Origin: Spirochaetes bacterium GWB1_36_13
GTDB taxonomy: Bacteria; Spirochaetota; GWB1-36-13
Assembly (NCBI GenBank): GCA_001829155.1
Contig: MIAO01000044.1
Coordinates: forward strand, 1 to 43,297
Direction of reading: 5' to 3'
Length of the DNA stretch: 43,297 bases
The position numbers and the translations under genes were made by a program. Of this stretch, positions 55-38,716 are shown piece by piece (the stretch's first letter is position 1; every line of letters begins with the position of its first letter). A model generated the notes under the pieces. That model ran no database searches, was not told the origin of the DNA, and was given only the letters and a program-made list of their open reading frames with translations.

Positions 55-576
55 ATGCTATCTTTAATAGAAAGGGGAAACAAAAATAAATGTACATTAA
101 TCCGCTTTCTGACATTGTTTTTAAGCGAAAACTTCCAGATTCACTTTATTGAAGTGAAGAAGTATCAAAACAATCTCAATAAACTCAAGAAAACTTTAAA
201 TGACTGGGTCTGTTATTTCTTAAATGAAGGGAAAGATGAGGTAATCATGAAAACAGTTTTAGAACACAATCCGCTACTCAACAAAGTTCATCAGGAATAC
301 AAAAAATTCACTATGAACGATAAAATGAGAGAAATTTATGAATATCAGGAAAAAAAGCGGAAAGATGAAAAATCTTTAATCAACAGTTTTTATAAAAAAG
401 GGGTCAAAGAAGGGATCAATCAAGGAATCAAAGAAGGGGAAATCAAAGGAGAGAAAAAAGGAAAAATCGAAACAGCTCAAAATATGCTGAAAATGAAACT
501 GGATATTCAAACAATCCATCAGGCAACCGGGCTTTCGATTGAAGAAATCCAAAAAATCGTTTCAAAAGACCAATAA
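55..576 (+). pseudogene. Internally deleted copy of an Rpn/YhgA-family PD-(D/E)XK recombination-promoting nuclease/putative transposase. The N-terminal nuclease core is missing; the DUF4351-like C-terminus is retained.
   Basis: The 173-aa ORF matches the first ~15 and last ~160 residues of the full-length paralog at 1727..2641. It lacks the D...E.Q nuclease block. DNA upstream of both copies is near-identical (GATGAGTTCAAAACTCTTTGAATCTTTT...). Confidence 0.6.
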
Positions 577-1562: not shown

Positions 1563-1726
1563 GTTTTTTCTCATTATTTTCTAATTTTTACTTTTAGTTA
1601 ATTTTTGTTTATCTTTTTAAGGGGTCAGTCAACCGAAAACCCCGGGGTCAGAATACCGAATAGTAACACAAAGCAGAAGCGGGGCTGGGTGATGAGTTCA
1701 AAACTCTTTTGAATCTTTTGTAAAAA

Positions 1727-2641
1727 ATGCTATCTTTTATACAAAGAGGAAAATTAAAAATGTACTTTAATCCGCTTTCTGACATTCTTTTTAAATACTT
1801 ACTCGGCAGGGAAGAAACCAAAGACCTGCTTTTGTCTTTTATCAATTCTGTCTTAGAAGACTCCGACCTTGAAACCATGCAGTCTCTTGAAATCAGAAAC
1901 CCTTTCAATCTCAAAGAGTTTAAAGCCGACAAAACCAGTATCTTGGACATCAAGGCAGTGGATAATAAAGGCAAGATTTACAATATCGAGGTGCAGAACA
2001 TCGGCGATGAAGTTTTTGTGAGCCGATCGCTTTACTACTGGGCAAAGCTTTATGCAGGTCAGCTTGAAGAATCTGAAGACTACACCAAACTCCAGCCTGT
2101 CATCTGCATCAATGTCCTAAATTTCGATCTTTTGGAAAAACCTGATCTTCTTCACAGCTGTTTTATGGCTTTTGACAAAAACGACAAAGACATTCTTTTA
2201 AGCGAAAACTTTCAGATTCACTTTATTGAAGTGAAGAAGTATCAAAACAATTTTAACAAACTCAAGAAAACTTTAAATGACTGGGTCTGTTATTTCTTAA
2301 ATGAAGGGAAAGATGAGGTAATCATGAAAACAGTTTTAGAACACAATCCGCTACTCAACAAAGTTCATCGGGAATACAAAAAGTTTACCATGGATGATAA
2401 AATGAGAGAAATTTATGAATATCAGGAAAAAAAACGGAAAGATGAGCAATCTTTAATCAACAGTTTTTATCATAAAGGCATCAAAGAAGGGGAAATTAAA
2501 GGAGAAATCAAAGGAAAGATTGAAGGAAAACTTGAAACGGCGAAAAACTTTTATCGTCTTGGACTTTCTATCGGGCAAATAGCTGAAGGTACAGGGCTTT
2601 CCATTGAAGAAATCCAAAAAATAATTTCAAAAGACCAATAA
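1727..2641 (+). CDS. Rpn/YhgA-family PD-(D/E)XK recombination-promoting nuclease/putative transposase, full length. The probable true start is the ATG at 1760 (MYFNPLSDILFKYL).
   Basis: N-terminal PD-(D/E)XK block (ILDIKAVDNKGKIYNIEVQN) and C-terminal DUF4351-like KGEIKGKIEGKLETAKNF..GLSIEEIQKI. A 306-aa paralog lies at 28632..29552. Confidence 0.75.
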   Translation: MLSFIQRGKLKMYFNPLSDILFKYLLGREETKDLLLSFINSVLEDSDLETMQSLEIRNPFNLKEFKADKTSILDIKAVDNKGKIYNIEVQNIGDEVFVSRSLYYWAKLYAGQLEESEDYTKLQPVICINVLNFDLLEKPDLLHSCFMAFDKNDKDILLSENFQIHFIEVKKYQNNFNKLKKTLNDWVCYFLNEGKDEVIMKTVLEHNPLLNKVHREYKKFTMDDKMREIYEYQEKKRKDEQSLINSFYHKGIKEGEIKGEIKGKIEGKLETAKNFYRLGLSIGQIAEGTGLSIEEIQKIISKDQ

Positions 2642-2689
2642 TAATCTAAAAATTTGAATTGCACGGACATTGAGCAAAGCCGAAATGAG

Positions 2690-2745
2690 GGTGTTGAGAA
2701 CGCGCCCCTTCTCTATCTAAAAGGAAGGAATTGAGGGGATGAGAT
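2690..2745. repeat. REP-like palindromic element with the ATTGAGGGGATGAG tail. It is followed by a C11 homopolymer at 2747..2757.
   Basis: CCCCTTCTCTATCTAAAAGGAAGGAATTGAGGGGATGAG, then CCCCCCCCCCC. Confidence 0.55.
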
Positions 2746-2787
2746 GCCCCCCCCCCCAATCAAGAAATAACCGAATCATCCGATCAT

Positions 2788-3288
2788 CTAATTTCCTCCG
2801 GCAACACAACGGATTTGAAAGGTACCAGTCATATTGCCGTAGTAGACGGCGCCGTTGTTGAAATTGACGATCCACGCGCTGGTTGGATTAGAAACATAGG
2901 GCGAGGACGACCAATAATAGCTTGAAACCGTATTCGGGAAAAGCGCTGTGTCAATTGCGGGATTTGATTTCAAAGGATTCACCAAGGTCAAAAGCTCTTT
3001 GAGAGCGGGAAGCCTCCAGTCGGATCTGCCTCCCAGTGTGAGCCCTTCGCAGTAGGAAAGGGCATCTTTCCAAATTTTCGTCCCCGCAGACCCTGTGCAT
3101 CCGGCATCGTTATTTTGACCATAGCTGCATTTCTGCCAGACCAGTCCTGTCACAGTGTCTTTGACCGTGCCGTTTTCATAATCTAAGTAGGTCCGGACTG
3201 CTGAAAATAACGGATATGAAAGAATCAAAAATAGGAGCAGAAAATAAAACTGCCTGCGAAGAAACGGGTTTTGTTTTTGTGTTTTCAT
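2788..3288 (-). CDS. Exported DUF1566 (Lcl C-terminal domain) protein.
   Basis: N-terminal hydrophobic signal. Motif GLVWQKCSYGQ...C....W..AL.YCEGL.LGG..DWRLP..KEL..L is typical of DUF1566. It is paralogous to the C-terminus of the adjacent 3514..5292 product. Confidence 0.7.
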   Translation of the reverse strand: MKTQKQNPFLRRQFYFLLLFLILSYPLFSAVRTYLDYENGTVKDTVTGLVWQKCSYGQNNDAGCTGSAGTKIWKDALSYCEGLTLGGRSDWRLPALKELLTLVNPLKSNPAIDTALFPNTVSSYYWSSSPYVSNPTSAWIVNFNNGAVYYGNMTGTFQIRCVAGGN

Positions 3289-3304
3289 AAAATCTCCTCA
3301 ACTC

Positions 3305-3450
3305 ACACTAGCCCCTCTCTTTCGAAGAGAGGGGGAAAAGAATGATTTTTTTATTTTTTCTATTTATTTGTGCTTTTTACTTTTTTCTTCCTCCCCTGAT
3401 CTTCCTAAGACTTGTGCTGAACAAAGTCGAAGCAGAAGGGGTCGGGGATG
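3305..3450. repeat. About 145-bp composite intergenic repeat: hairpin CCCCTCTCTT..AGAGAGGGG, then AAGAATGATTTTT, then a T-rich stretch, then CCTAAGACTTGTGCTGARCAAAGTCGAAGYAGAAGGGG..GGGGATGA.
   Basis: A near-identical second copy at 20078..20222 sits in the same position, directly upstream of a surface-lipoprotein gene. Confidence 0.6.
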
Positions 3451-3513
3451 AAATCCTGCTCAATACTCGTATCTCATTATTGAGTCAATAAAATAACCAA
3501 ATCATCAAATCTT

Positions 3514-5292
3514 CTACAATCCTCCGGCAACACAACGGACTTGATAAATATACGTCATATTGGCGCTGCTAGCGTTGCCGCCGGTGAAATAGACGACCCA
3601 CGCGTTGCCCGTAGCAAGCACATAGGGCGAGGACGACCAATACTGTCCTGAAACCGTAGCCGGAAAAACCGCTGTATCAACTGCGGGGTTATTGACTCCC
3701 TGTTTCGTAATCGTAATAAGCTCTTCATAAGACGGCAGTCTCCAGTCCTCTCTTCCTCCGAGAGAAAGCCCATCGCAATAACTGACGGCATTGGCATGGG
3801 TATAAGTCAAAGCTGTCCCTGTGCATTCGGCATCACTATTCTGCCCTGCCGAGCACCTCTGCCAAACTAAGCCCGTCACGATGTCGTTGACAGTTTCATT
3901 CCCGTTTGTGGTCCAGCTGGGGGCATTGGGGGTATTGGGATAGTTTGCGTCCTGACCATAATACCATTCTGTGCTACTTGGACAGGGGATTGAGGTCGAT
4001 CCCCCGTTGCTACAGCTCGTTATGCCGGTATCCGAGACTTTATAAGATTTTGCACTGCTGATATAAAAGCCTGTTTTGGAATAAACGCTCTTGTTGCCTG
4101 CTTGATCTTTCACCACTACAGTGAAATAATACTTGATTTGTGCAGTAAGACCTGAGACGGCTTTTGAGCTGATATTGGATTCATAGCCGGTGCAGGTTTT
4201 GGTTTCTGCAGTGGTGGCATCATTCGTAAAATCTGCATTGGCATAGCAAAGCTGATACTGGAGACTGGCGGCAGTGCTGAGATTATCGCTTCCCGCTGTC
4301 CAAACGGCTGTAAAACTACTTGAAGCAGAAGCAGATAAATCTAAAAGAGGCGTTCCGACTGTGGGGACTGTACTGTCCACTGTCAGGGTTGCAGTTGATC
4401 CGCCTGATACATTTCCCGCCTGATCCACCACAAAGAGTTTATAATTTCCCTGGGTCGTAGGGGCAGTGATACTGGTCGCCGTGCCGAGAGCTTTTGTCAT
4501 TGTAGCCCCTTCGGTGAACACGGTTGTCCCGCTTGGGGCAAACCAGACCGTGTTATTTGCATCCCCGGAGCTGACTATTGTAATCACACTTCCCCCATTC
4601 TGTATTACAATCGAGTTTGGAAAAACTGTGTCCTGATTTGCTGGGGCGGTATTGTCCACTGTCAGAGTGGCACTTGATTCACTTGATACATTTCCCGCCT
4701 GATCCACCACAAAGAGTTTATAATTTCCCCCTGTTGCAGGGGCATTGATACTGGTTGCCGTGCCGGAAGCTTTTGTCATCGTGACCCCTTCCGTAAACAC
4801 AGTTGTCCCGCTTGGGGCAAACCAGACCGTATTATCCGCATCCCCGGAGCTGACTATTGTTACCGCACTTCCCCCATTCTGTATTACAATCGAGTTTGCA
4901 AAAACCGTGTCCTGATTTGCAGGGACTGTATTGTCCACTGTCAGGGTTGCTGTTGATTCACTTGATACATTTCCTGATGGATCGACTACAAAAAGTTTAT
5001 AACTTCCCTCTGTTGCAGGGGCATTGATACTGGTTGCCGTGCCGGAAGCTTTCGTCATGGTGCTTCCTTCTGTAAAGACCGTCGTTCCACTCGGTGCAAG
5101 CCAGACCGTATTACCCGCATCCCCGGAGCTCACTATTGCTACCGCACTTCCCCCGCTTTTCACTGTCGAGCCTGCAAAAACCGTGTCCTGATTTGCCGGG
5201 GCTGTCACATCCCCGATTAAGACTATTTCTTCCTGTTTGTTGATACACCCCAATAAAACGATACTGAATAATATAAAAACTATTTTTTTCAT
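3514..5292 (-). CDS. Surface lipoprotein with three ~93-aa near-identical tandem repeats, an FN3-like region and a C-terminal DUF1566 domain.
   Basis: Lipobox LLGC at the N-terminus. Repeat unit PANQDTVF..GGSAV.IVSSGDA.NTVW.APSGTTVFTEG.TMTKA.GTATSI.AP.T.G.YKLFVVD..GNVS occurs three times. C-terminus GLVWQRC...DWRLPSYEEL matches DUF1566. RBS GGAGGAG lies 7 nt upstream. Confidence 0.75.
   Translation of the reverse strand: MKKIVFILFSIVLLGCINKQEEIVLIGDVTAPANQDTVFAGSTVKSGGSAVAIVSSGDAGNTVWLAPSGTTVFTEGSTMTKASGTATSINAPATEGSYKLFVVDPSGNVSSESTATLTVDNTVPANQDTVFANSIVIQNGGSAVTIVSSGDADNTVWFAPSGTTVFTEGVTMTKASGTATSINAPATGGNYKLFVVDQAGNVSSESSATLTVDNTAPANQDTVFPNSIVIQNGGSVITIVSSGDANNTVWFAPSGTTVFTEGATMTKALGTATSITAPTTQGNYKLFVVDQAGNVSGGSTATLTVDSTVPTVGTPLLDLSASASSSFTAVWTAGSDNLSTAASLQYQLCYANADFTNDATTAETKTCTGYESNISSKAVSGLTAQIKYYFTVVVKDQAGNKSVYSKTGFYISSAKSYKVSDTGITSCSNGGSTSIPCPSSTEWYYGQDANYPNTPNAPSWTTNGNETVNDIVTGLVWQRCSAGQNSDAECTGTALTYTHANAVSYCDGLSLGGREDWRLPSYEELITITKQGVNNPAVDTAVFPATVSGQYWSSSPYVLATGNAWVVYFTGGNASSANMTYIYQVRCVAGGL
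4362..5205. repeat. Three tandem in-frame coding repeats (~279 bp each) inside 3514..5292.
   Basis: DNA-level near-identity between blocks (e.g. CCACAAAGAGTTTATAATTTCCC recurs). The protein repeats are >85% identical. Confidence 0.6.
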
Positions 5293-5315
5293 TTCTTTCT
5301 CCTCCCTTTTTTCTC

Positions 5316-6011
5316 TTAAAAATCAACCTTCATTTTTATCCCCGCTTTCAGCCACAAAATCTCCGACATCATCGATTGAGGACCGGTATCATTGATATTA
5401 TCCAAAAGGTTCATCGAGCTCAGGGTTTTATTTTCATAAAACTTTGTCAAGCTCAGCTTAAAATTAAGCCCTCCAAAAAGCTCAAACTCATCAAAAAGGG
5501 GGATCGCAGCCCCTGCTTCCAAAAGAATACCGATCTCACTTTTGAAATGTTCTTTTGATACTGTTTTGTCTAATATTTTCGGGCTTGATATTGGAAGATG
5601 AATGAACCCTCCGATTCCCGCAGTAAAAATCTTTAAAAATTTTGCCCTTGCTCCCGCTTCCAGACCTAAAAAACTCATAAAAAAATCATAATCTTTGCCG
5701 TTTTGACTGATTTTATAGCTTCTGCCAATCCAGGAGGGTGAAAAAAACACAGAGGCAGAATTTAAAAAAAACCTGTCTTTGGTTTCTTCCGCTGTCAAAA
5801 AAATCCAGGCTAAATCCGCTCCGCCTGTCCAGCCTGCACCTGCCTTTGCCTCTGTTTTAATGCTTGCAAACTGCTTGTCATAAACCAGCTGGGAAGAAAG
5901 ATAATGAAAAACACTCCCGCCGCCATACACTCCAATCTCGGTCTGAATCTTTTGTGCATACCCTGCGAAGGGCAGGAGAAACATTATTGCCAATACTGTT
6001 TTTTTCATCAT
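5316..6011 (-). CDS. Small outer-membrane beta-barrel protein (porin/OmpA-like beta-barrel family). Translationally coupled to the downstream FN3 lipoprotein gene.
   Basis: Signal peptide MMKKTVLAIMFLLPFAGYAQ. Alternating amphipathic beta-strands. C-terminal ...IKMKVDF ending in Phe. RBS AAAGGAG lies 7 nt before the ATG at 6011; the ORF-track start at 6029 is probably too far upstream. Paralog of 20228..20917 (AGIGGFIHLPISSPKILDK versus AGGGLFAGLPVSKPSILSK). Confidence 0.55.
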   Translation of the reverse strand: MMKKTVLAIMFLLPFAGYAQKIQTEIGVYGGGSVFHYLSSQLVYDKQFASIKTEAKAGAGWTGGADLAWIFLTAEETKDRFFLNSASVFFSPSWIGRSYKISQNGKDYDFFMSFLGLEAGARAKFLKIFTAGIGGFIHLPISSPKILDKTVSKEHFKSEIGILLEAGAAIPLFDEFELFGGLNFKLSLTKFYENKTLSSMNLLDNINDTGPQSMMSEILWLKAGIKMKVDF

Positions 6012-6221
6012 AAAAAAACTCCTTTTCATTTTTAAAATAAATTTAAATTTTTGATTTTTTTAGAATAGAATGAAATTAAATGAAAGTGAATAAATTTTCT
6101 CACTATTTCACCTCAAATATCACGAATAATGAAATTTACTCAAATTATAATTCATTGTGAAATCATCTTTCTAAAAAGTATGATTTAAAAACTCAACTCA
6201 TAGCCCTGCTTCGGCAAGCTC

Positions 6222-6268
6222 AGTACACCCCCTCTCTTAGTAAGAGAGGGGGAAAAAAGAATGATTTT
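6222..6268. repeat. GC-rich hairpin element CCCCCTCTCTTAGTAAGAGAGGGGG followed by AAAAAAGAATGATTTTTTGG.
   Basis: Family member; see 1519..1562. Confidence 0.55.
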
Positions 6269-6315
6269 TTGGTTCTTCCTCATCTTCCCTTCATCTCATT
6301 CTCCCCATCCTTCTT

Positions 6316-9303
6316 CTACATCTGTTTCAGATTTTGTGAAAACTGGCGATTTGTGATGCTTTTTATATCTCCTGTTTCTCCGAAAGGAATTTTCACTGTA
6401 AAATAGATTTTATCTGTTTTATAATTCACATTTCTGGCATAGCCGATGGTAAAATCAAGAACCGAATCATAAAAAACCAGAGTGGACAACCCCAGCTCGC
6501 CGCCATAAGAATAAAGCAGTTCTTGATTTTTCAAGTCTTTAAAATTTTTGTTGGAAGTCAGGGCATAGTCAAAAAATCCGTTGATATACAATCCTCTGAT
6601 ATAAAAAGGCCAGCTTTGATACCCTCCTATCATTTCAAATAATGGCAGAAGGTATTCGACTGATCCTGAAAGATAATAGTTTCCGCCTGCCTGTTTTTCT
6701 TCATAGCCTCGTAAAAGAGCTTTATCTCCAAAATATTCTTCGGTCGGAAAATTTTCAAGCCCTGAAAAATAGAGACTTCCAAGATAAGTGTGATATTGGG
6801 TTTGGCTTTCATCGATAAATTTTCCAAAAACTGCTCCGCTTCGGTTTAAAAGAGAAAAAACTGCTTTTTCAAAAATGACCTGACCGATAGAAAAATTAAA
6901 CCTGCCTGATATTTCATGAAAATCAGGTTTCAAATACTTCCGGTAGTCTAAACCAAGGTCGATCCCATCGGATTTTCTAAAAGATTCCCTGAAAAAATCA
7001 CGGTTTGAAAAAGAAGCAACCGCAAGGAGTCCATACATATTCTGGTTCTCGCCGTCGATTTCCATTGTCTTCTGATAGTCCAGAAAACCTCCGCCTTTTA
7101 AATCAAAGGAATAATCAAAAGTATTCCAGCGGTACCCGAAAGCAGCTTCATGGTAAAAATCCTGATACCCCTCTTCTTTTTTTACAAGATTGTTCTTGAT
7201 TGCGATCAGGTTTCCGATAAAACCCTCTTTTCCAGTATAATCATACTCAAAGCGATAATTTATGTTTTTATGGTGAAGGTCATAGTTTGCCATCAAAAAC
7301 AGCGAATGGATTTCCAAAGGATCGTTCCATCCCGTAAACACACCCAGTTGAAAAACATCATAGTCCGTATATTTTTCAAGACGCAGATACGGCAGCCACC
7401 AATAGGGTCTGAGCCATGAAAATGCAGAATAATCTTCAAAATTCTTTTCAACCGAAACTTTTTGGTAGGGTTTTACGGCGATTCTTTCTTCCGCTACCGA
7501 TTCGAGTTTTGAATAAACGGGAATCGACTCGGCTTGAACACTTGCCACATTATAACCAGACACGGCTGAATAGACAAAATAAAGAGTATTTTCGGAAGGG
7601 CGGGGGAAAAACGCCTTTGTTTCCACATTGGTCAATGGAGCCAGCTGTTGATGGGCGATTTCATACTGGTAGATATTATAAATTCCGTTTGTGTCAGCTG
7701 AAAAATAAATCATTTTATTTTTATAGTACGGATCCCTCACTTTTCCTTCTATCCTGCCCAGCTCACTTTTTTCTCCTGTTTCAGTGTCAATCTGAATAAA
7801 AGCCGTTTCCCGTTTTTCAAAATCAAACTCAGGATAAACCACTTTGGTTTCAGAAATAAAAAAAGGCTTAATCCCTCTTGTATTTTTAGCCAGCTGAACC
7901 AACTTTTCTGTCTGAAGATCATAAATTGCAATATTTTTGCTGCCGTCTGTTTCTATTTTGATTCCGACAATTCTTTTCTCATCCGGTGAAGGCGCAATAT
8001 CATAAAAGTGTTTTAAAACTCCCTCACCAATCACAAGCAATTCTTCTTTTTCCAGATCATAAAAAACAGGTAGTGCATAGATTTCCGATTGCGTTTTCCG
8101 GTAAATATGAAAATAGATTTTTTTTCCAGATACTCCAGTTTCCACTCTATGCCCCGTAAAATATCCCTTCAAAAGTTTTACCAGTTCTTTTTTCTCAAGA
8201 TCAAAAGAATAAAGAGCATCCCGGCTGTAACCACCGAAAAAATCAAATTTCAAGTCTGAATCCGTCAGAAAATAGGCTTTTTTCCCATCGGGAGAAACTG
8301 TAAAACCTTTAATATCTTCCCTTTCTTTTTCAAAATTCAGGAGAAGATCGGGCCGGGTAATAGACTGGGAAGCGATTTTCTGAAGTTTTGCCTTCTGTTT
8401 TTCAGATTCATGGGTTTTAAACTGTTCATAAACTTCTGAATAAGTAAAATCATCCCCGTCAGGAATATTTTTTTGTTCAAAAAGGGTTCCGATCCCGCCG
8501 TCAAAAAAGAAATAAAAACGCCCGGCATGGATATACGCAAGCTCTCCGACAAAATTCTCTTTTTTCCCCAGAATTTGATAGATTTCTCCAAAAATCCCGA
8601 CCCCATAAGGATAAGGAGTATTAACCGTATTATAAGCCGTAAACTGAGCCATATCGGCAAACCCGAACAGCGTGTTTTCACGGTACCGGGTATCGTAATC
8701 GGTTGAATTATACCGTCCGTCATAGGCGAAATAACTCTCATTGAAAACAGCTGTTCCTTCATCAAACCAGGTGGGGGTGGTGAGGTTCGGAGCTGTCAGG
8801 AACCCGGGCATAATAAAAGGAGGAAGATTGCGGGCTGTGAGAAGATAAAAAGGATCAATCATTGAAGTGTTCAGAGGGTTGACAGGGGGTTTCCCGAATA
8901 TTGCCCTTAACACCTCGGAATATCCGCGCCTGCCGTCGTTTTCAAAAACATGCGTCAGTTCATGGATAAAAAGAGACTGAGCCCAGTTTCTAAAACCGAT
9001 CTCAGAATCATAATCAGCGCCGGTCAGATAATAGTTGATTTTATTGAAAGGCACCGTGTAGGCATTGCCGTTTGGCACATCGCTATTAGTATGAATCTCT
9101 ACATGGACGGGAGCTACTTCATAGGGAAAGAGTTTTTGGAGCGTTTCATACGCCCCTTCCGCCCATTCTCCCAGATTCAAAATAACTTCCTCTTTGATCC
9201 CTTCGGGATAATGAAGGTAAAAGTGTTTTGTTTTTAGTGTTTTATATCCGAAGCCATATCCCGCTATCCCTATCAAAAAAAGGCATAATAAAATCTTTTT
9301 CAT
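6316..9303 (-). CDS. Large exported protein with an N-terminal HEXXH zinc-metallopeptidase-like motif, central PD40/TolB-like beta-propeller repeats and a C-terminal beta-rich domain.
   Basis: Signal peptide MKKILLCLFLIGIAGYG. FIHELTHVFEN is an HEXXH motif. Repeats of the type VSPDGKKAYFLTDSD / IAPSPDEKRIVGI match PD40-like propeller blades. Long aromatic-rich beta region at the C-terminus. Confidence 0.5.
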   Translation of the reverse strand: MKKILLCLFLIGIAGYGFGYKTLKTKHFYLHYPEGIKEEVILNLGEWAEGAYETLQKLFPYEVAPVHVEIHTNSDVPNGNAYTVPFNKINYYLTGADYDSEIGFRNWAQSLFIHELTHVFENDGRRGYSEVLRAIFGKPPVNPLNTSMIDPFYLLTARNLPPFIMPGFLTAPNLTTPTWFDEGTAVFNESYFAYDGRYNSTDYDTRYRENTLFGFADMAQFTAYNTVNTPYPYGVGIFGEIYQILGKKENFVGELAYIHAGRFYFFFDGGIGTLFEQKNIPDGDDFTYSEVYEQFKTHESEKQKAKLQKIASQSITRPDLLLNFEKEREDIKGFTVSPDGKKAYFLTDSDLKFDFFGGYSRDALYSFDLEKKELVKLLKGYFTGHRVETGVSGKKIYFHIYRKTQSEIYALPVFYDLEKEELLVIGEGVLKHFYDIAPSPDEKRIVGIKIETDGSKNIAIYDLQTEKLVQLAKNTRGIKPFFISETKVVYPEFDFEKRETAFIQIDTETGEKSELGRIEGKVRDPYYKNKMIYFSADTNGIYNIYQYEIAHQQLAPLTNVETKAFFPRPSENTLYFVYSAVSGYNVASVQAESIPVYSKLESVAEERIAVKPYQKVSVEKNFEDYSAFSWLRPYWWLPYLRLEKYTDYDVFQLGVFTGWNDPLEIHSLFLMANYDLHHKNINYRFEYDYTGKEGFIGNLIAIKNNLVKKEEGYQDFYHEAAFGYRWNTFDYSFDLKGGGFLDYQKTMEIDGENQNMYGLLAVASFSNRDFFRESFRKSDGIDLGLDYRKYLKPDFHEISGRFNFSIGQVIFEKAVFSLLNRSGAVFGKFIDESQTQYHTYLGSLYFSGLENFPTEEYFGDKALLRGYEEKQAGGNYYLSGSVEYLLPLFEMIGGYQSWPFYIRGLYINGFFDYALTSNKNFKDLKNQELLYSYGGELGLSTLVFYDSVLDFTIGYARNVNYKTDKIYFTVKIPFGETGDIKSITNRQFSQNLKQM

Positions 9304-9328: not shown

Positions 9329-12300
9329 TTAATATCCATAAACCTCAAACTCGTAGAGAGCCACGCCCGCCGTTCCTTTTGTTCCGTCCGCACTCATTCT
9401 GACATATTGGGTTTGAACATTAAGACCTGTCAAAGTATCGGTGGAATAGTTTGCCCCCGCAGTCAGAGTATTGCCTAAAACTGTCCAATTTGTTCCGTCA
9501 TTGGAAGTCTCAATCCGGTAAGTCGTTGCCGCCGCTTCCCAATAAAGCTTGATTTCAGTAACGGTTTTGACTGCTCCGAGATTAATGGAAATCCATTGGG
9601 GACTAGTAAAATCATTTAGACTTGCCCAGTATGACCCTGTTGTAGCTCCATCAACTGCATAAGTAGGTGTGAAATTTGCTTCCATAGAAGAACTCGCCAC
9701 TTCTTTTCCTAGTGCAAGATTAGGGAGAACCTGTCCATAAATCATAACAGTTCCATACAAAATACTATTACTATCCGTATTACTGCCTATGACTCTAAAT
9801 CCATAAGCCTGCCCCTGCGTAAGATTAACAACAAAAGGAGCTGCGGAATTGAGTTCAAACCAACCATTGGTTGTTATGTTTGGTTGTAAATCAACCGTTG
9901 TAGCTCCATAAAAAAATTGCAGAGTGAATTGGGCTCCAGAGTACATATGGTAAGCAGAAACATGCCAATTAAAATACATTGTTCCAGAAGTAGAAGCATT
10001 TGCTGTAAAAGTCCAAATCTGAGTAGGAACACCGCTCCCGCCAGAAGCACCGTTGTTATTGTAATCTAACCTCAGAGTTTGGGTACTGCTGTCGGGAATA
10101 GCTGACTGGGTTGCTGTATAATTGACATTTCCTCCTGTAACCGACGCAGACCATGAATCATACCAATAAGTAACAGCCATATCCCACACCGCATAAAGAG
10201 TAATATCAGCACCTCCAGAGTAAATTGCATTGTCTGAATATTCTACTGCTCCTCCCTGAGTTGAAGACCACCCCATAAAAATATAGCCTGATTTTGTAAA
10301 TGAATTTGGGGTAAGATTAATCGGCGAAGTAGAATATTCTTCAATTATCTGACTTCCCTGTCCCCCGTTTGGATCGTAAGTAATGGTATAGACCGGAGCA
10401 GGTTCTTTATAAATCAAAAGAGTATAAGTCTGAACCGTTGTCCCGTCTTCGGCAGTGATTATTAAGTCGAGAGGGACTTCCCCACTTTCTATGTTGAGGT
10501 TAATCGGCAGTCCATTCGTTGGAATCGGCATATTATCCCCGCTGCCCTGATAGGAAACAGAGGCATAAGAAGATGTAGTGACGGGAGTTATGGTCAATGT
10601 TGTTGCAGCATAAGGCTGAATAATTTCAAAATGATTATCCCCCATATTTTCATAGCTTCCCGCTGAAAGTCCTAGACTTGAGAGACTCGCATCCGAACTT
10701 GGAGCCTGCCGTGTGATTGCGAGGGTATAGGTCTGAACCGTTGTCCCGTCTTCTGCCGTCACCTGCACTTCTATGGTATTGGATCCCGTAATAAGGGAAA
10801 CTGAGCTGGTAGGAGTTCCGCTGGCAACAGGAATCCAGTTTCCGCTGTTGACTCTCATCTGGATAGAAGCAGCCGCATTTTCCTTGACCGCAGTCAACGA
10901 GAAAGAAGAAACAGCATTGGCAACGCTCACAGTATAGCTAAGCTGGGCATTTGAAAAAACAGGGCTTAAAGAGATCCCTGATAAAGACAAACTCGAGAGG
11001 TTGGCATTTGTACTGACCACCCCGGCTTCTCTGGTAATCACCATCGTATAGGTTTTCACGGTCGTTGTGTTTTCGGCCGTTACTTTAACTGCTATGGTAT
11101 TGACCCCTTCATTCAGGGAAACAGCCCGGCTCGCTGTTCCGCTTTCAATGCTTTCCCAGGTTCCGCTGTTCACCTTCATCTGCAAGACTGCATTGGCATG
11201 ATCTTTTACCGGTGTAAGGGTAATACTGGTTACCGTATTGGGAACTGCGGCTGTATAGGCAATCACTGAACTTGAAAATACAGGGCTTAAGCTTCCGGCT
11301 GAGAGATCGAGGGAGCTTAAAAGCGCATCAGAAGAAAGTGTGGTTCCCCCGTCGTCCTGAATCGAAATCAGTTCTCGTTCATTGGAAGCATAGGTGGTCT
11401 GATAGGTTTCAGGCACTGTTCCGACCGTTTCAATCCCTTCCCCTGCCAGATAGGTAATTTCGTTACTTCCTTCTTCATTCGGTTTTGAAAATCCCACCTG
11501 AACCGGAGTTCCGTTCAGGGTTGCCTCCGCATACCCCCCGTTATTATCGGAAAAACTCTGTACATTCAGGTTGACCGTAGGCGTTGTATAACCCAGAACA
11601 ACGAGCGAGGCATTGTTGGAACCGCTGGTTTGGGGCTTGATATCCAGGTTTCCGGTTTCAGTTCCGTCCGCTTTTTTAAACTTCAATTCCGCTTTGCCGG
11701 TCGAACCGTCCAGAATAAACTCATACACATCGTTATTCGCTAAATCCTTGAGCTCTGTTTTGACATTTTTTGCGTCCGTATGCCAGTAAACTTTAATTTG
11801 AAAGCTCCGGTCAATCTCCTGAATGTCTTTTTCAGTGACCGCAATTTCAAACTTCCGGTTATAAAGAGGATCGCCCGCAACTGTTTCATAAACATAGTCC
11901 GGGAAAAGAAGGCTGGACGGATAGCTTAGAGTAACAAAAGAATAGCCTTTAGTGTTATAAGTTTCAATCTGATTGTCAGGGTTGACCAGTTCAGGCGTCA
12001 GCTCTTCCAGTCTTTTAATCAGAGCATTATCCAGATTGAGTATTTTTCCTTTTTTAAGCCCGGAAGAAGGAGAGAGGTCATTTTGATCAATCATGGCGTC
12101 AATCAAAATATACCATTTTGCCGCCAGTCCCTGCTTCAGGGTGACTGCATCGTTCATATCGCAGAGTTTATCATAAACGGGATTGGTAACGGGGGTTGTA
12201 TCCCTTGTGATTCGTGTGATTCGGGTAATCCGCGTGATACGGGTGATCCGCGTAATTCGGGTTACTCTGGTGACACGGGTCACACGGGTAATCGAGTTGG

Positions 12301-12442
12301 GTCTCGGCACCGTAAAATTGGAAGGGAGGGTTTTCACAGCATAGGAACCCGGTAAAAAATTATCCTGTGCCGGCATACATCCTGCCATAAGAATAAGCAG
12401 GAAAAGTTTTACCAATCCTGTCAGTGTTATTTTTTTTACCAT
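9329..12442 (-). CDS. Giant multidomain lipoprotein. Domains in order: TR(V/I) tripeptide repeat tract, cadherin-like beta-sandwich domains, Listeria-Bacteroides (Flg_new) repeat, C-terminal F5/8 type C (discoidin) domain.
   Basis: Lipobox LMAGC. RVTRVTRVTRITRITRITRITRITRITR tract. Repeated ..LSSL.LSAG.LSPVFS......YT..V domains. TITYDPNGGQG..........GY.F.GW matches the Listeria-Bacteroides repeat. C-terminal LALGKEVASSS...YAVDG....YW...NDFTSPQWISINLG.....EIKLYWE....Y.IE.S.DG.NWT matches discoidin. Confidence 0.7.
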   Translation of the reverse strand: MVKKITLTGLVKLFLLILMAGCMPAQDNFLPGSYAVKTLPSNFTVPRPNSITRVTRVTRVTRITRITRITRITRITRITRDTTPVTNPVYDKLCDMNDAVTLKQGLAAKWYILIDAMIDQNDLSPSSGLKKGKILNLDNALIKRLEELTPELVNPDNQIETYNTKGYSFVTLSYPSSLLFPDYVYETVAGDPLYNRKFEIAVTEKDIQEIDRSFQIKVYWHTDAKNVKTELKDLANNDVYEFILDGSTGKAELKFKKADGTETGNLDIKPQTSGSNNASLVVLGYTTPTVNLNVQSFSDNNGGYAEATLNGTPVQVGFSKPNEEGSNEITYLAGEGIETVGTVPETYQTTYASNERELISIQDDGGTTLSSDALLSSLDLSAGSLSPVFSSSVIAYTAAVPNTVTSITLTPVKDHANAVLQMKVNSGTWESIESGTASRAVSLNEGVNTIAVKVTAENTTTVKTYTMVITREAGVVSTNANLSSLSLSGISLSPVFSNAQLSYTVSVANAVSSFSLTAVKENAAASIQMRVNSGNWIPVASGTPTSSVSLITGSNTIEVQVTAEDGTTVQTYTLAITRQAPSSDASLSSLGLSAGSYENMGDNHFEIIQPYAATTLTITPVTTSSYASVSYQGSGDNMPIPTNGLPINLNIESGEVPLDLIITAEDGTTVQTYTLLIYKEPAPVYTITYDPNGGQGSQIIEEYSTSPINLTPNSFTKSGYIFMGWSSTQGGAVEYSDNAIYSGGADITLYAVWDMAVTYWYDSWSASVTGGNVNYTATQSAIPDSSTQTLRLDYNNNGASGGSGVPTQIWTFTANASTSGTMYFNWHVSAYHMYSGAQFTLQFFYGATTVDLQPNITTNGWFELNSAAPFVVNLTQGQAYGFRVIGSNTDSNSILYGTVMIYGQVLPNLALGKEVASSSMEANFTPTYAVDGATTGSYWASLNDFTSPQWISINLGAVKTVTEIKLYWEAAATTYRIETSNDGTNWTVLGNTLTAGANYSTDTLTGLNVQTQYVRMSADGTKGTAGVALYEFEVYGY
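12204..12284. repeat. About nine tandem 9-nt units (CGNGTRATY) encoding the TR(V/I) repeat, in frame inside 9329..12442.
   Basis: cgtgtgatt cgtgtgatt cgggtaatc cgcgtgata cgggtgatc cgcgtaatt cgggttact ... is read directly. Confidence 0.6.
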
Positions 12443-16651: not shown

Positions 16652-19600
16652 TTATTGTTTGTTTCCGCTGCTGTCATATTGAATCAGAAATCCGCTTCGC
16701 CCCATGTTTGCAAAACTGTCAAATCCTTTATCAGTATTATGACCTACAATCAGGATGTTTCCGCTTCCATCCACGGCAACGCCGTAACCCTGCATATTCA
16801 TATCCCAATAACCCGGCTGACCGTAGCAAAGGACTTTAGTCCACTGGCGGGTTCCCGTGCTGTTAAATTTTGATACAAAGAGACCGGAATTACTGCCTGG
16901 AGCGCTGACACCGTCAATCCAGATTGTAGTATCGCCACTCCCAATTGCCCCTCCTGTGATATAAATATTACCGCTGGTATCCAGAGCAAGCCCCCTCGCT
17001 TGATTAAAATCGGTTTGAACCACTCCGCTGTCATTGACTCCGGGAATAAGTTTGGTAAACAATCTGGTTCCGCTTGAATCGTATTTCATGAGATAAGTGT
17101 TATATTGATTTGCGGTAGGTGTCAATCCGTCAAGCGTACTCTGGGTAAAGCCTGCAATAATAACATTACCGCTTCCATCCACTGTCATATCCGCATATCC
17201 CAAAGATCCTTCAGCATTTGAATAGAGAACTGCCCACTGTTTTGCAAAGGATGAATCCAGTTTGACAATAAACTGATCTGTGCTTGACTGAGTATTTGTT
17301 AGAGGCACGCCGTATAAGCCTCCATAAGTAAATCCTGTAATATAAATATTGTTGGAAGAATCAATCCCGATACCTAGAACCGATACTCCTTTGGCAACAC
17401 CATCCGCTGCCTTGACAAAAACCGACTGTTTAACCCCGCTGGAATTAAATTTTGCCACCAGAATATGCCCTTGTCCACTTGACAAGGTCTGCCCTTCAAA
17501 CTGCCGGCTGGCGTATTGGGAATCTGAAATAACTCCGCCCACAAAAATATTCCCGCTGGTGTCGAGAGCCATAGAATATCCGCGGACAATCACATTGGTA
17601 TCTGTTCCGTCTAAAAGCGTCATCCAATCATTGCCGCCGGTTGATTTATTCAATTTTGCCAAATAAAGGGCATAGGATGCATTAAAAGTCTGTCCGTTAA
17701 AAACATTTGCAGTTGAATTTCTTCGAACAGTTCCGGTAACATAGATCCCATCCGTACCAATGACTATATCGTTAGCTTCAGGTTCGAGCCAATCTCCCCC
17801 GATCATTTTTGTCCATTGCCGGACTCCCAGGCTGTTATACTTGATGACAAAAATATCTGCATAGATTTTAGGTGATGTAAAGGGATCTTCTATAGTATAA
17901 GTGCTTGAATTCAAAACTCCCATCACATACATACTGCCGTCTGTATCCAAAACGATTTTTTGCGGGACCTGATTTGAGATTCTTTTACTGAAAGGTACGA
18001 GCGTGGTCTGGGTTTTTTGGGTATAGGCTTTTATATTTCCTTTTTGATCATGTGCAAAGACTGAAATAGTATAGCTTTGCCCCATGGATAAGCCTGAAAG
18101 AGTATGAGTAGTAAGCCCGTAAATACCCATCTTAGGACAGGTTGTCTGTGATATTGCTGTGTTATAATCATTCGTGAAAGGAGCAGTGTGATAACAGAAA
18201 TCATATGTGATAAGCCCTTGAGTCGTCACATTGTCTGATGCCGCATTCCAGGTGACTGTGAAACCGGATTCGCTCAGATTGCTGATAGAAAGGGTATCGT
18301 CGGAGACAGTCGGAGCTTCAGTGTCATCTAATAAAACCGCCTGAGAGTTTTTCGTATAAATACCCTTATTCCCCCCCGCATCTTTTACAATGACCGTAAA
18401 CGAATAGGTATTGCCGGCTGTGAGTCCTGTCAGAGCTTTACTGGTAATCGCCGTTTCATAGCCTGTGCAGGTTTTTGTTTCGGCAGTAGCCGTGTCATTC
18501 GTAAAATCAGAAGTCGCATAGCAGACTTGATACTGAAGGGCTGAAACAACTGTCGTGTCATCGCTTGCCGCTGTCCAGCTCACTGTAAAGCCTGTTGCAG
18601 ATGCATTTGATACTGTCAAGGAAGGAGTGCCGACCGCAGGGGCTGTCGTATCCGTTCCGGCCGGGTTGGTCTTGGTTGAGTTTTTACTGTAGATCGACTT
18701 GTTATTTTGTTCATCTTTGACCGCAACAGTATAATAATAAGTTGTATCGGCAGTAAGACCAGTAACGGCTTTGGTTGTAATATTGGGGGTATAGCCTGTG
18801 CTTGTCCCGTTGGCTTCCATATCGGCGATAGTCGCAATATTATCACTCGTTGAAGTATAGACCGCATACTCCAGATTGGCAGCCGTTGTCCCGTCATCGC
18901 TTGCCGCTGCCCAGCTCACTGTAAAGCCTGTGGAGGATACACCCGACGGTGTCAAGCTGGGATTTTGAATCGTTGGAGTCTTGTCTGTGGTATTCGTGGT
19001 GGTTGTTTTATTTTTGCTGTAGATTGATTTATTTCCTGAACTGTCTTTTGCCACAACCGTATAAAAATATTCCGTAGAAGGAGCTGCTGCCGGAAGGCTT
19101 ACAGGCGCATAACAGATATCAGGCGTATAATTCACATATACTCCTGTCCCGTTGCTTTCCGCTTCAGTTAAACTGGTAATATTGTCAGTAGTGGAATAAT
19201 AAACCTGATACTGAATATCTGAAGCCGCAGTCCCATTGTCGGTAGCCGGCACCCAGGAAACAGTAAATCCTTGATTATGGACTCCCGATGCTGTGATCGG
19301 TGAGGATGGAATGACCGGCGGAGTCGTTTCACCCGCTGTCGTGGTTTTATTTTTGATGTAAATTGATTTTGCGTTGGCAGAGTCTTTGGCGACCACTGTA
19401 TAATAATACTCGGTGTTGGCATTTAAATTGGTTATTGTTTCGCTTGTGTCTGTCTGATAAGTCCCGGCGGCTGTCCCGTTGGTTTGGGCATCAGCAACAG
19501 TGCTGATATTATCCGCAGCCGAATAATAAACCTGATAGGTGATACCGGAGGATGAACCGGTTGAATCAACGGCAGGGTTCCAGCTGACGGTCAGTCCGTT

Positions 19601-20056
19601 GTAGGTTACAGTCGAAGGCGTAATCACGGCATCCGTCATCTTGGGGGTTGCCGTGCTTCCTGAGGTTCCCGTGGTTTGAGAATTTTTAGTATAAATACTT
19701 TGAGTTCCGCTTGTGTCTTTGGCAACCACGGTATAATAATAAGTGGCGGATGGATTAAGCCCTGTAATGTCTTTTGAAGTGATACCGGAAGCATAACCTC
19801 CAGCCGGGGTTCCGTTTGTTTCGGCATCCGTCACAGTCGCAATATTGTCTGTAGTGGAATAATAAACCAGATACTGGGCTCCCGCATTGCCTGTTCCCGG
19901 TGTCCAGGATACGGTAAATCCGCTTCCCGATACGCCCGAAGCGGTGAGAACGGGATTACTGATTGTAAGTGTTCCTGAACCCACATAGTCTAAGTTTTGT
20001 TTGTTCACACAGGAAAAAAGGAAAACTAGCATTAATAAGAAAAGTATTTTTTTCAT
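16652..20056 (-). CDS. Giant surface lipoprotein: six or more N-terminal FN3-like repeats followed by SBBP-type beta-propeller repeats.
   Basis: Lipobox LFSC. Recurrent GFTVSW..A.D......L.Y.VYYST.DNI.T...A..NGT..G......TGL...T.YYYTV.AKD..G.KSIY.K. C-terminal repeats (DTSGNIYITG....G.....LFVSKFNS.G...W) match SBBP. RBS GAGGAG upstream. Confidence 0.8.
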   Translation of the reverse strand: MKKILFLLMLVFLFSCVNKQNLDYVGSGTLTISNPVLTASGVSGSGFTVSWTPGTGNAGAQYLVYYSTTDNIATVTDAETNGTPAGGYASGITSKDITGLNPSATYYYTVVAKDTSGTQSIYTKNSQTTGTSGSTATPKMTDAVITPSTVTYNGLTVSWNPAVDSTGSSSGITYQVYYSAADNISTVADAQTNGTAAGTYQTDTSETITNLNANTEYYYTVVAKDSANAKSIYIKNKTTTAGETTPPVIPSSPITASGVHNQGFTVSWVPATDNGTAASDIQYQVYYSTTDNITSLTEAESNGTGVYVNYTPDICYAPVSLPAAAPSTEYFYTVVAKDSSGNKSIYSKNKTTTTNTTDKTPTIQNPSLTPSGVSSTGFTVSWAAASDDGTTAANLEYAVYTSTSDNIATIADMEANGTSTGYTPNITTKAVTGLTADTTYYYTVAVKDEQNNKSIYSKNSTKTNPAGTDTTAPAVGTPSLTVSNASATGFTVSWTAASDDTTVVSALQYQVCYATSDFTNDTATAETKTCTGYETAITSKALTGLTAGNTYSFTVIVKDAGGNKGIYTKNSQAVLLDDTEAPTVSDDTLSISNLSESGFTVTWNAASDNVTTQGLITYDFCYHTAPFTNDYNTAISQTTCPKMGIYGLTTHTLSGLSMGQSYTISVFAHDQKGNIKAYTQKTQTTLVPFSKRISNQVPQKIVLDTDGSMYVMGVLNSSTYTIEDPFTSPKIYADIFVIKYNSLGVRQWTKMIGGDWLEPEANDIVIGTDGIYVTGTVRRNSTANVFNGQTFNASYALYLAKLNKSTGGNDWMTLLDGTDTNVIVRGYSMALDTSGNIFVGGVISDSQYASRQFEGQTLSSGQGHILVAKFNSSGVKQSVFVKAADGVAKGVSVLGIGIDSSNNIYITGFTYGGLYGVPLTNTQSSTDQFIVKLDSSFAKQWAVLYSNAEGSLGYADMTVDGSGNVIIAGFTQSTLDGLTPTANQYNTYLMKYDSSGTRLFTKLIPGVNDSGVVQTDFNQARGLALDTSGNIYITGGAIGSGDTTIWIDGVSAPGSNSGLFVSKFNSTGTRQWTKVLCYGQPGYWDMNMQGYGVAVDGSGNILIVGHNTDKGFDSFANMGRSGFLIQYDSSGNKQ

Positions 20057-20077
20057 AGCACACTCCTCATAGATTTT

Positions 20078-20222
20078 TAACTCACCCCCCTGCCCCCCCT
20101 CTCTTAGAAAGAGAGGGGGGAAAGAAAGAATGATTTTACTTTTACTTTTTTTTCTTCTTCTTTATCTCCCCTTCTCTTCCTAAGACTTGTGCTGAGCAAA
20201 GTCGAAGTAGAAGGGGATGAGT
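20078..20222. repeat. Second copy of the ~145-bp composite intergenic repeat.
   Basis: Aligns with 3305..3450 over the hairpin, the AGAATGATTTT motif and CCTAAGACTTGTGCTGAGCAAAGTCGAAGTAGAAGGGGATGAG. Confidence 0.6.
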
Positions 20223-20227
20223 ATTTT

Positions 20228-20917
20228 TTAGTTAAAAAGATCAATCCGGTAAGTCGCGCCAAAAACGATCTGGAAAAGCTGGCTATTGAGGTTTTCCAGG
20301 CTGGAATCGTTGATATTGTTTGATCCGCTGATGCTGGTTCTGAGTTTGTCGTTGTTATAGATTTTATTAAACGCGATATTGAGCCGAATCCCTCCAAACG
20401 CGTCAATCGTCTCATCAATCGGAAGTGAAACTCCAAACTCGCCCCAGAGTCCAAACTCGGCTTTGACATAATCTGATGTTCCGGCTTTGCTTAAAATACT
20501 GGGTTTGGAAACGGGAAGACCGGCAAAAAGTCCCCCGCCGGCATAAAAAATATCCATAAAATAATATTTTGCCCCGGGGTAAAATCCTAAAAATCCGAAA
20601 CTGGCAGTCGTTTCAACTTTCTCAGTGGTCCAGGTTCTGTCCACTGCCACTGATTTGGAGAGGTATCCGATACCAAGGGTTAAGGAAAGTTCAGGAGAAA
20701 GGTAGTAAGCGCCGTCAATTCCGAAAGAGAAAGAACTTTTGGCAGAGACATCCATTTTTGTAGCAGCATATTCGTTGTCAATCAGAGTATTATTAATCTG
20801 ATACTGAAAAATACCGATTCCCAGCATCACGCCTGCTTCAATCGTGTCCGCTTTTTTCACTGCAAAGAGTGAAGAACTGATGATGAGAGTGAAAAGAAGA
20901 GTTAAAATTTTTTTCAT
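20228..20917 (-). CDS. Small outer-membrane beta-barrel protein, paralog of 5316..6011. Probable start MKKILTLLFTLIISSSLFA.
   Basis: Signal peptide and amphipathic beta-strand pattern. Shared motif AGGGLFAGLPVSKPSILSK. Its start region overlaps the stop of the upstream 850-aa gene (TAATG arrangement at the ORF-track start 20992), or lies 75 nt further down at the RBS-supported ATG 20917. Confidence 0.55.
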   Translation of the reverse strand: MKKILTLLFTLIISSSLFAVKKADTIEAGVMLGIGIFQYQINNTLIDNEYAATKMDVSAKSSFSFGIDGAYYLSPELSLTLGIGYLSKSVAVDRTWTTEKVETTASFGFLGFYPGAKYYFMDIFYAGGGLFAGLPVSKPSILSKAGTSDYVKAEFGLWGEFGVSLPIDETIDAFGGIRLNIAFNKIYNNDKLRTSISGSNNINDSSLENLNSQLFQIVFGATYRIDLFN

Positions 20918-35637: not shown

Positions 35638-36237
35638 CTAATCAAAAATTTTTTTTCTGATAAGTATTCCTTCTAAAATAATTTTATAAAGGGTATCAAA
35701 TTCTTCTTCAGGCGAAAAAGAAAAATCTTTAAAAATATCTTCGATAAAAAGATTAAGCGTTAAATAATTCAAAATAGCCAGCATTATATCCATATTAAAA
35801 TCTTTTCTAATAAGATTTTTTTCCTGTCCCTCTATAATTAGTTTTTTGATATTAGTCGTAAAAAACTGCTTTGAAAAATCATTGATTTTTAAAAACAAAT
35901 CAGGTGCTTCTTTTTTTATATCTTTTAACATTAGTTTGGACTTGTTTCGATAAATATTAATATACTCCCAGATATCTTTTATTTTTAAAAAAAAATTCTT
36001 ATTACTACTATTAATTTCATTTAAAACCTGCATTGCTTCTTCTAAAAGATGATCAACCACCTGCTCCAAAATACTTTTTTTGCTTTCAAAATAAGTATAG
36101 ATTGTTTTTTTACTCCATCCGACCGAAGAAGCAATTTCATCAATATTCACTTTGCTGTAGCCAAATTGAAAAAACTGTTTTTCAGCTTCTTTTAAAATGC
36201 TGTTTTTTATCTCTGTTTTTTTACTTTTTCTAGGCAT
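35638..36237 (-). CDS. TetR-family transcriptional regulator.
   Basis: N-terminal TetR HTH: ILKEAEKQFFQFGYSKVNIDEIASSVGWSKKTIYTYFESKKSIL. Confidence 0.8.
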   Translation of the reverse strand: MPRKSKKTEIKNSILKEAEKQFFQFGYSKVNIDEIASSVGWSKKTIYTYFESKKSILEQVVDHLLEEAMQVLNEINSSNKNFFLKIKDIWEYINIYRNKSKLMLKDIKKEAPDLFLKINDFSKQFFTTNIKKLIIEGQEKNLIRKDFNMDIMLAILNYLTLNLFIEDIFKDFSFSPEEEFDTLYKIILEGILIRKKIFD

Positions 36238-36384
36238 TCTCTTTTCTTTTTTTATTATTTATTCTATAGATATAAAATATATTCACATACTTTTATTTTT
36301 TTTAATTTTGATATAATTTTGAGCCTCTAACCTCTTTTCTATTGTTTTCAATAAAAAAAGAGGTTAGTCTTCTTTTTACTATCC

Positions 36385-38676: not shown

Positions 38677-38716
38677 AGTTACACCTCTTTTTTTTTATTC
38701 ATAAAGTGATAAAAAA

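Follow-up and report, generated by a model that had tools for sequence, protein, structure and literature searches.

The 43,297-nucleotide stretch of Spirochaetes bacterium GWB1_36_13 analyzed here (contig MIAO01000044.1, referred to below as the window) encodes two small paralogous proteins that are predicted to be eight-stranded outer-membrane beta-barrels, each followed by the gene of a large predicted lipoprotein built of FN3 and other domains. Barrel 1 (5316..6011; 231 aa) precedes lipoprotein 1 (3514..5292; 592 aa) and barrel 2 (20228..20917; 229 aa) precedes lipoprotein 3 (16652..20056; 1134 aa); a third such gene, lipoprotein 2 (20992..23463; 823 aa), lies upstream of barrel 2. All five open reading frames (ORFs) are on the minus strand, at the coordinates given in a preliminary description of this DNA. 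Barrel first and lipoprotein second is the consistent architecture, in the window and in related metagenome loci. The explanation favored here, tentatively and at somewhat less than an even chance, is that barrel and lipoprotein, encoded in one operon, form a complex and that the barrel docks or anchors the lipoprotein.

Barrel fold, gene order and partner lipoproteins

The two barrels align from end to end with 29% identity (BLASTP, E 2e-25), and both have a signal peptide (MMKKTVLAIMFLLPFAGYA in barrel 1, MKKILTLLFTLIISSSLFA in barrel 2) and an aromatic-containing C-terminus (...KVDF and ...RIDLFN, respectively); a family hidden Markov model (HMM) detects no barrel in the window beyond these two. 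AlphaFold2 prediction from the alignment of the two paralogs gave an unusable model (predicted local distance difference test score, pLDDT, 44.5). The alignment of 12 sequences, including a few relatives, yielded a reliable model (pLDDT 83.7; predicted template modeling score, pTM, 0.79) with eight strands at residues 22-42, 53-72, 83-103, 106-125, 129-140, 159-171, 176-187 and 211-230. The mature protein is ~210 aa, and the barrel of the model begins at residue 22. Eight antiparallel strands in a closed barrel are thus found together with the signal peptide and the C-terminal aromatic residue typical of eight-stranded outer-membrane beta-barrels, and on the basis of the model the small proteins are assigned to the OmpA/OmpW/OprF-N structural class. 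The preliminary description had regarded them as paralogous barrels with signal peptides and C-terminal aromatics, and the alignment and the strand count bear this out.

The best Foldseek matches of the model are OprG and OmpW; AlkL is matched too, and further structural matches include OmpA-TM, OprF-N, NspA and OmpX, all eight-stranded outer-membrane proteins (OMPs). Sequence identity of the barrels to solved structures is merely 8-15%, and a profile search of the barrels against PDB sequences returned no meaningful match. The Pfam family OMP_b-brl_2 (PF13568, gathering cut-off 27 bits) matches barrel 2 at 31.5 bits, and it matches the barrels of two related metagenome contigs, L004 and L003, at 25.4 and 18.8 bits. 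Barrel 1 has no match in Pfam or NCBIfam, the TDE1717 family (NF049866, cut-off 135 bits) included, and barrel 2 matches the latter at only 21.8 bits. The barrels stand at the divergent edge of OMP_b-brl_2; fold and clan are known, and the barrels are new and highly divergent representatives of both.

Two long loops of the model, 141-158 and 188-210, lie on the face opposite both termini and are predicted, by the usual topology of OMPs, to be extracellular. Their conservation equals that of the strands (39%), and the highest value, 69%, is that of strand 5 (FYAGxGxFxGxP). If the predicted topology is correct, conserved rather than hypervariable loops would be unusual for an outward-facing surface of an OMP.

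The family is very rare and lineage-restricted. A profile of the two paralogs found 13 matches at E<=1e-3 among 1.84 billion representative proteins. Four of these are clear family members (barrel 1, barrel 2, P0003 and the fragment P0004); of the others, one is a low-complexity artefact and the remainder (E 6e-8 to 1e-3) are distantly related barrels of the OMP_b-brl_2 type. When barrel 1, barrel 2 and the 12-sequence alignment were used as queries in word-indexed protein searches, nothing came back but the query itself or one distant protein. No match to the barrel alignment was found in 185,579 species genomes, a collection from which the window's own metagenome-assembled genome (MAG) is evidently absent, and a metagenome scan found two barrel loci, L003 and L004, in one sample. 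The sequences form three clades, i.e. barrel 1; barrel 2 with L004 (54% identity) and L002 (57%); and L003 with L001 (97%). Between clades the barrels are 31-39% identical.

An FN3 lipoprotein gene is next downstream of the barrel gene, on the same strand, in all four family loci with genomic context, a small sample of related organisms to which P0003, P0004 and P0005 did not contribute (contigs too short or no DNA); L001 shows the L003 arrangement over the 870 bases that it spans. Barrel 1 is separated from lipoprotein 1 by 23 nt (5293..5315, minus strand) containing a Shine-Dalgarno-like GGGAGGAG, as read from the sequence. The L003 barrel is followed, after 21 nt with AGGAGG, by a lipoprotein with an LAGC lipobox and FN3 and Big_12 repeats, and the L004 barrel, after 15 nt with AAGGAG, by a 948-aa lipoprotein with an LFGC lipobox, four to five FN3 domains and a delta-60 propeller. 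Between barrel 2 and lipoprotein 3 the spacer is 171 nt (20057..20227, minus strand) and crosses two strong hairpins of a repeat element that is described below; it folds at -62.6 kcal/mol (z -4.1). The GC hairpin in this spacer was considered as an intrinsic terminator and rejected, there being no U-tract after the hairpins and no call by a terminator scan, and transcriptional read-through across them is possible. Since adjacency is kept across clades whose barrels are only 31-39% identical, the linkage has outlasted long divergence, with the C-terminal domains of the lipoproteins exchanged meanwhile.

The preliminary description had instead joined barrel 2 to lipoprotein 2, in a TAATG overlap taken as translational coupling. 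On the barrel-first reading this is probably the wrong pair, and lipoprotein 2 would be an extra upstream paralog. The overlap needs a barrel 2 start at 20992, and an ORF start there would place 25 residues that do not belong to a signal peptide (MEKIRQSEKNLL...) before MKKILTLLF. The start is placed at 20917, the one that the preliminary description itself listed, because in the L004 ortholog merely 9 codons lie between the upstream stop and the MKKI start, and the stop of lipoprotein 2 then lies 74 nt upstream of barrel 2. With gaps of 23 and 74 nt there is overlap in neither pair, and translational coupling is not upheld. As for one module occurring twice, the paralogous barrels beside lipoprotein genes stand, but the gene order originally given was opposite in the two modules, and it becomes consistent only when barrel 2 is paired with lipoprotein 3. 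The 23 nt behind barrel 1 and the position of lipoprotein 3 as the next gene after barrel 2 are confirmed.

Signal peptides and a lipobox with its invariant Cys in every partner (LLGC, VLAC and LFSC in lipoproteins 1, 2 and 3, and LAGC and LFGC in the L003 and L004 partners given above) read from the translations, mark these proteins as predicted bacterial lipoproteins. Lipoprotein 1 contains three tandem Big_13 repeats of 279 nt, a single Cys-pair FN3 module and, at the C-terminus, an Lcl_C/DUF1566 domain (Pfam Lcl_C, 5.7e-30), and it matches the NCBIfam Lsa25 model weakly; it had been described as a giant protein with a beta-propeller, but its 592 aa hold no propeller. Lipoprotein 2 has four FN3 domains and a DUF5122/delta-60 propeller (Pfam, NCBIfam). 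Lipoprotein 3 has six FN3 domains (Pfam fn3, 7.5e-32) and an SBBP propeller (2.7e-13) that is related to LipL53 (NF047494, 1.2e-35, under its cut-off). The Cys-pair FN3 module (LQYQ[LV]CY...TKTCTGYE) is common to all three, at residues ~304-418, ~354-468 and ~467-581 of lipoproteins 1, 2 and 3, with 51-57% identity. In lipoproteins 1 and 2 it directly precedes the C-terminal domain, which differs between the two, and in lipoprotein 3 one more FN3-like module comes after it, an arrangement consistent with domain shuffling onto a common stalk. The nearest matches of the FN3 modules are in Leptospiraceae, Turneriella and "Spirochaetes" MAGs, and the source organism is therefore probably related to the Leptospirales.

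The residues just after the lipid-anchor Cys track the barrel clade. Beside barrel 1 and the L003 barrel the tethers are CINKQEEIVLIGD and CFGSQEDRIIMGD, respectively (pattern QE[ED]x[IV][LI][IM]GD), and in the barrel 2/L004 clade they are CINKQNLEYIG (lipoprotein 2), CVNKQNLDYVG (lipoprotein 3) and CINKQNTDYIK (pattern QN[LT][DE]Y[IV]). Lipoproteins of the same contigs that have no adjoining barrel begin CMPAQDNF, CFRGEPVP, CQNSFEPS and CSSSSLSK. The C-terminal domains vary throughout (DUF1566, Big_12, delta-60, SBBP), and over five pairs the pattern suggests that barrel, tether and FN3 stalk form a chassis that stays constant while the heads are exchanged.

Explanations of the linkage

The conserved adjacency supports a dedicated partner of some kind, as judged from gene order. 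In the favored complex, barrel and lipoprotein would be made together and would associate in the outer membrane, the barrel serving as the membrane-embedded docking or anchoring partner. On the barrel side the contact might be made by loops 141-158 and 188-210, predicted to be extracellular, or by the conserved strand 5; on the lipoprotein side the first FN3 domain or the conserved N-terminal tether might make it. Other machinery would carry the lipoprotein through the outer membrane, a role attributed in Borrelia to an LptD homolog. Counted in support of the complex are the rarity of the family, the conserved linkage, the match of tether to clade, the conserved loops, the precedents discussed below and the locus of P0008, the only distant barrel relative that follows the pattern (its gene lies 19 nt after a propeller-like gene and 35 nt before a lipoprotein gene).

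A number of observations weigh against such a complex. The functional link is drawn from gene order alone. No more than four or five loci are involved, the organisms, about three in number, are related and uncultured, every locus lies in a lipoprotein-dense region, and shared descent of a duplicated segment could explain the adjacency. In 26 related FN3 loci with 10-kb flanks, taken from other genomes including MAGs of Leptospiraceae (52% identity), Turneriella (45%) and Spirochaetes (46%), the family and 12-sequence HMMs found no barrel relative at E<=1. Conserved adjacency, which the preliminary description had put forward as a check on the pairing, is thus kept in all family loci with context but is absent from the 26 related FN3 loci. 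Tight pairing is also missing in three of the four distant barrel relatives with context: P0012 lies 3' of rseP among housekeeping genes (L006), P0010 has no lipoprotein neighbor, and the lipoprotein gene nearest to P0011 is 483 nt off. No FN3-barrel fusion protein is found among the profile-search matches. The loops of the barrel model, on which the loop topology depends, are of low confidence (pLDDT 57-75 in parts). Finally, the similarity of the tethers may come from paralogy of the lipoprotein genes alone, and their pattern could reflect recombination breakpoints lying further downstream.

The most serious rival explanation, a considerable if doubtful possibility, dispenses with any specific partnership. 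The barrels would then be ordinary small structural or porin-like OMPs that were duplicated together with neighboring lipoprotein genes, the adjacency being inherited and not selected. This accords with their resemblance to generic eight-stranded OMPs (OmpA-TM, OprF-N, NspA, OmpX), with the related FN3 lipoproteins elsewhere that have no barrel and with distant barrel relatives in unrelated contexts, e.g. that after rseP. The window itself is a lipoprotein-rich island, packed with paralogous lipoprotein genes and repeats, in which FN3 lipoprotein genes make up three of ~27 genes, and co-duplication alone predicts some adjacency. Inheritance without selection fits less well with the retention of linkage, strand and 15-23-nt spacing across three clades while the downstream domains changed, with the co-variation of tether type and barrel clade, and with long loops that are not hypervariable.

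A two-gene surface-display cassette of an undescribed kind would go further than docking, in that the barrel would recognize its cognate lipoprotein by the first FN3 domain or by the tether (C-[IV]-N-K-Q...) and would be needed to hold or expose it on the cell surface, with C-terminal binding domains (DUF1566, delta-60 or SBBP propellers, Ig repeats) swapped on a barrel-tether chassis; this appears rather unlikely. RcsF threads through OMPs, and in a special case of the partnership the barrel might likewise fold around or next to the tether during assembly by the beta-barrel assembly machinery (BAM), in the manner of RcsF with OmpA, OmpC or OmpF, so that the lipoprotein would be topologically locked. 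The short post-Cys tether conserved in barrel-linked lipoproteins suits such threading, and single-operon expression would favor co-assembly; it is nonetheless judged decidedly improbable, given the little room that an eight-stranded lumen offers to a threaded chain and the very large passenger. Less likely again is a channel for small hydrophobic molecules of the OmpW/OprG/AlkL type that works with a substrate-capturing lipoprotein, SusCD-like on a small scale. The best Foldseek matches, OprG and OmpW, with AlkL also matched, favor it, but there is no Pfam OmpW match and thus no sequence membership, the partner domains (FN3, DUF1566, propellers) are adhesin-like, and no metabolic genes are linked.

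The lumens of eight-stranded outer-membrane barrels are narrow or filled, and such barrels are not known as exporters of folded proteins. The barrels here have an eight-stranded fold whose closest structural matches are other eight-stranded barrels, no periplasmic domain and no DUF560 or Omp85 match, and the folded Ig, FN3 and propeller domains of the cargo would amount to 590-1130 aa. A translocon for the adjacent lipoprotein, whether of the Slam or the autotransporter type, is therefore very unlikely and the least to be expected of these explanations; strand count and domain content led to its rejection as a candidate, although a barrel gene beside a lipoprotein gene follows the logic of the Slam cassette (PMC5449769) and the lipoprotein flippase of the Leptospirales is unknown (PMC11358297). 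Accordingly, where the preliminary description had suggested a dedicated partner (translocon, anchor or chaperone), the adjacency over three clades supports a partner of some kind, and the eight strands speak against the translocon.

A putative barrel of 291 aa in the Turneriella MAG L010 was considered as a family member and rejected (hhalign probability 0.2%, no Pfam match). The protein has an OMP-like C-terminus (...VIFKY), and its gene (6336..7211 of L010, minus strand) precedes by 7 nt a gene for a 1548-aa lipoprotein (1682..6328, minus strand); the barrel/lipoprotein gene-pair logic may have arisen here independently.

Repeats and other genes of the window

Just downstream of lipoprotein 1 a stand-alone secreted Lcl_C/DUF1566 protein is encoded (2788..3288, minus strand; 166 aa, Pfam Lcl_C 1.7e-37) that is a paralog of the lipoprotein 1 C-terminus. 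DNA identity is 76% between 2765-2964 and 3491-3690, the latter at the 3' end of the lipoprotein 1 gene, and 2788..3288 is a local duplication of the lipoprotein 1 head domain. Upstream of barrel 1 the best candidate for a sigma-70-like promoter (6144..6173, minus strand; TAGAAA-18-TATAAT, 10/12, by consensus scan only) lies within the 304-nt gap that separates barrel 1 from gene 6316..9303. The latter, on the same strand, encodes a 995-aa secreted protein with no Pfam match and weak TolB-propeller similarity. Gene 9329..12442 (minus strand) encodes a Cadherin-like/F5-F8 lipoprotein in which a 9-nt tandem repeat (12207-12292) specifies (TRV)n within the N-terminal tether; its L004 homolog (2618..4597) has a longer (TRV)n repeat, which suggests that the tether varies in length.

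The repeat element between barrel 2 and lipoprotein 3 belongs to an intergenic family with the GC hairpin CCCCTCTCTT-NNN-AAGAGAGGGG and shared flanks. Searching for the motif on both strands, with 0 matches expected, returned 10 that fall at 6 sites (1466-1488, 1520-1542, 3312-3334, 6229-6251, 16608-16630 and 20096-20118), and the hairpin is also found in L003 at 451-473. The family is located at gene ends as well as between barrel 2 and lipoprotein 3. Downstream of lipoprotein 1 the hairpin is part of a composite repeat (3309-3441; families D12 and D17) that is similar to another at 20095-20216, the component repeats being 66-84% identical. The hairpin repeat has no Rfam match and no U-tract, and it looks like an element of the repetitive extragenic palindrome (REP) or miniature inverted-repeat transposable element (MITE) type. 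Rfam and tRNA scans of the whole window gave no matches.

Rpn-type PD-(D/E)XK "transposase" genes (PDDEXK_2, Transposase_31) are present at 55..576, 1727..2641 (plus strand) and 28632..29552 (minus strand). The copy at 55..576 is truncated and matches part of 1727..2641 with 93% identity (119-418 versus 2196-2495), and a homolog also lies upstream of the L003 barrel. Gene 25865..28378 (minus strand) encodes an 837-aa bacterial homolog of the eukaryotic major vault protein (MVP shoulder, E 1.9e-29; Vault_3 repeat). A cluster at 35638..41656 (minus strand) encodes a TetR regulator, a DUF1302 outer-membrane protein, a LolA-like protein and an MMPL/RND transporter, and looks like a lipid or lipoprotein-related export cluster.

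Comparison with known barrel-lipoprotein systems

The eight-stranded outer-membrane barrels of known structure (OprF/OmpA N-domain, NspA, OmpW/OprG, OmpX/Ail; clan of PF13505 and PF13568) share the fold of the proteins described here, which differ in their conserved loops and, in the case of barrel 1 and the L003 and L004 barrels, in falling below Pfam cut-offs. With the OmpW family (PF03922) the similarity is structural only, there being no Pfam match. No solved eight-stranded relative is known as a dedicated operon partner of a large lipoprotein.

Slam consists of a periplasmic N-terminal TPR domain and a C-terminal 14-stranded DUF560 barrel (PMC5449769). The present pairs share with Neisseria Slam a barrel gene beside a lipoprotein gene and paralogous barrels, which in Slam serve different lipoproteins (PMC5449769). 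However, the Slam analogy drawn earlier fails as to mechanism for bare eight-stranded barrels with no TPR match and no DUF560 match at E<=0.1, and the substrates of Slam are TbpB-like whereas the neighbors here are Big_13, FN3, Lcl_C or propeller proteins. Closer in lineage are the noNterm Omp85 barrels of Leptospira, which invariably have the DUF1566 lipoprotein LIC12253/Lsa25 as a neighbor and for which a lipoprotein-handling role has been discussed (PMC11358297). There too, within the wider lineage, a barrel gene lies immediately upstream of the gene of a DUF1566 or large adhesin-like lipoprotein, but the barrel is a 16-stranded Omp85 without POTRA, unrelated to the eight-stranded barrels here, which have no Omp85-family match.

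The closest functional model for anchoring is that of the PorP/SprF-like barrels of the Bacteroidota type IX secretion system (T9SS), which bind and anchor adhesins with a type B C-terminal domain that are encoded beside them (PMC9143113); in both cases multiple paralogous barrels are each encoded beside the gene of a large partner protein, which in the Bacteroidota is a surface adhesin. The phylum and the barrel family differ (no PorP/SprF match in Pfam or NCBIfam here), as does the cargo, which in Bacteroidota has a C-terminal signal and uses the T9SS and here is N-terminally lipidated and ends in Lcl_C or a propeller. In Borrelia burgdorferi the flipping of surface lipoproteins is LptD-dependent (bioRxiv 10.1101/2022.12.21.521298; cited in PMC11358297), likewise a spirochaetal surface-lipoprotein route in which a barrel of the outer membrane is essential. 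Unlike a small paralogous barrel encoded beside each cargo, LptD is a large machine of general function, and by analogy it would likely act as the translocation step before the proposed docking.

Surface placement of lipoproteins in spirochaetes other than Borrelia is an unresolved problem, the leptospiral lipoprotein flippase in particular being unknown (PMC11358297). Should the proposed complex exist, the known barrel-lipoprotein pairs (Slam with surface lipoproteins, LptD-LptE, OmpA/C/F-RcsF, SusC-SusD and PorP with type B cargo) would be joined by a new class of very small size, and a minimal eight-stranded barrel would be a compact chassis for surface display, of limited impact for an extremely rare family (four clear members in 1.84 billion proteins) of uncultured organisms. 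The undescribed surface-exposure system that the preliminary description envisaged goes beyond the data, in that related FN3 lipoproteins of Leptospiraceae and Turneriella MAGs lack a neighboring barrel and a barrel/DUF1566 cassette has already been noted in Leptospira (PMC11358297). The pairing would thus be a variant of known barrel-lipoprotein cassettes rather than a new category, with a logic that has its published parallel in Leptospira.

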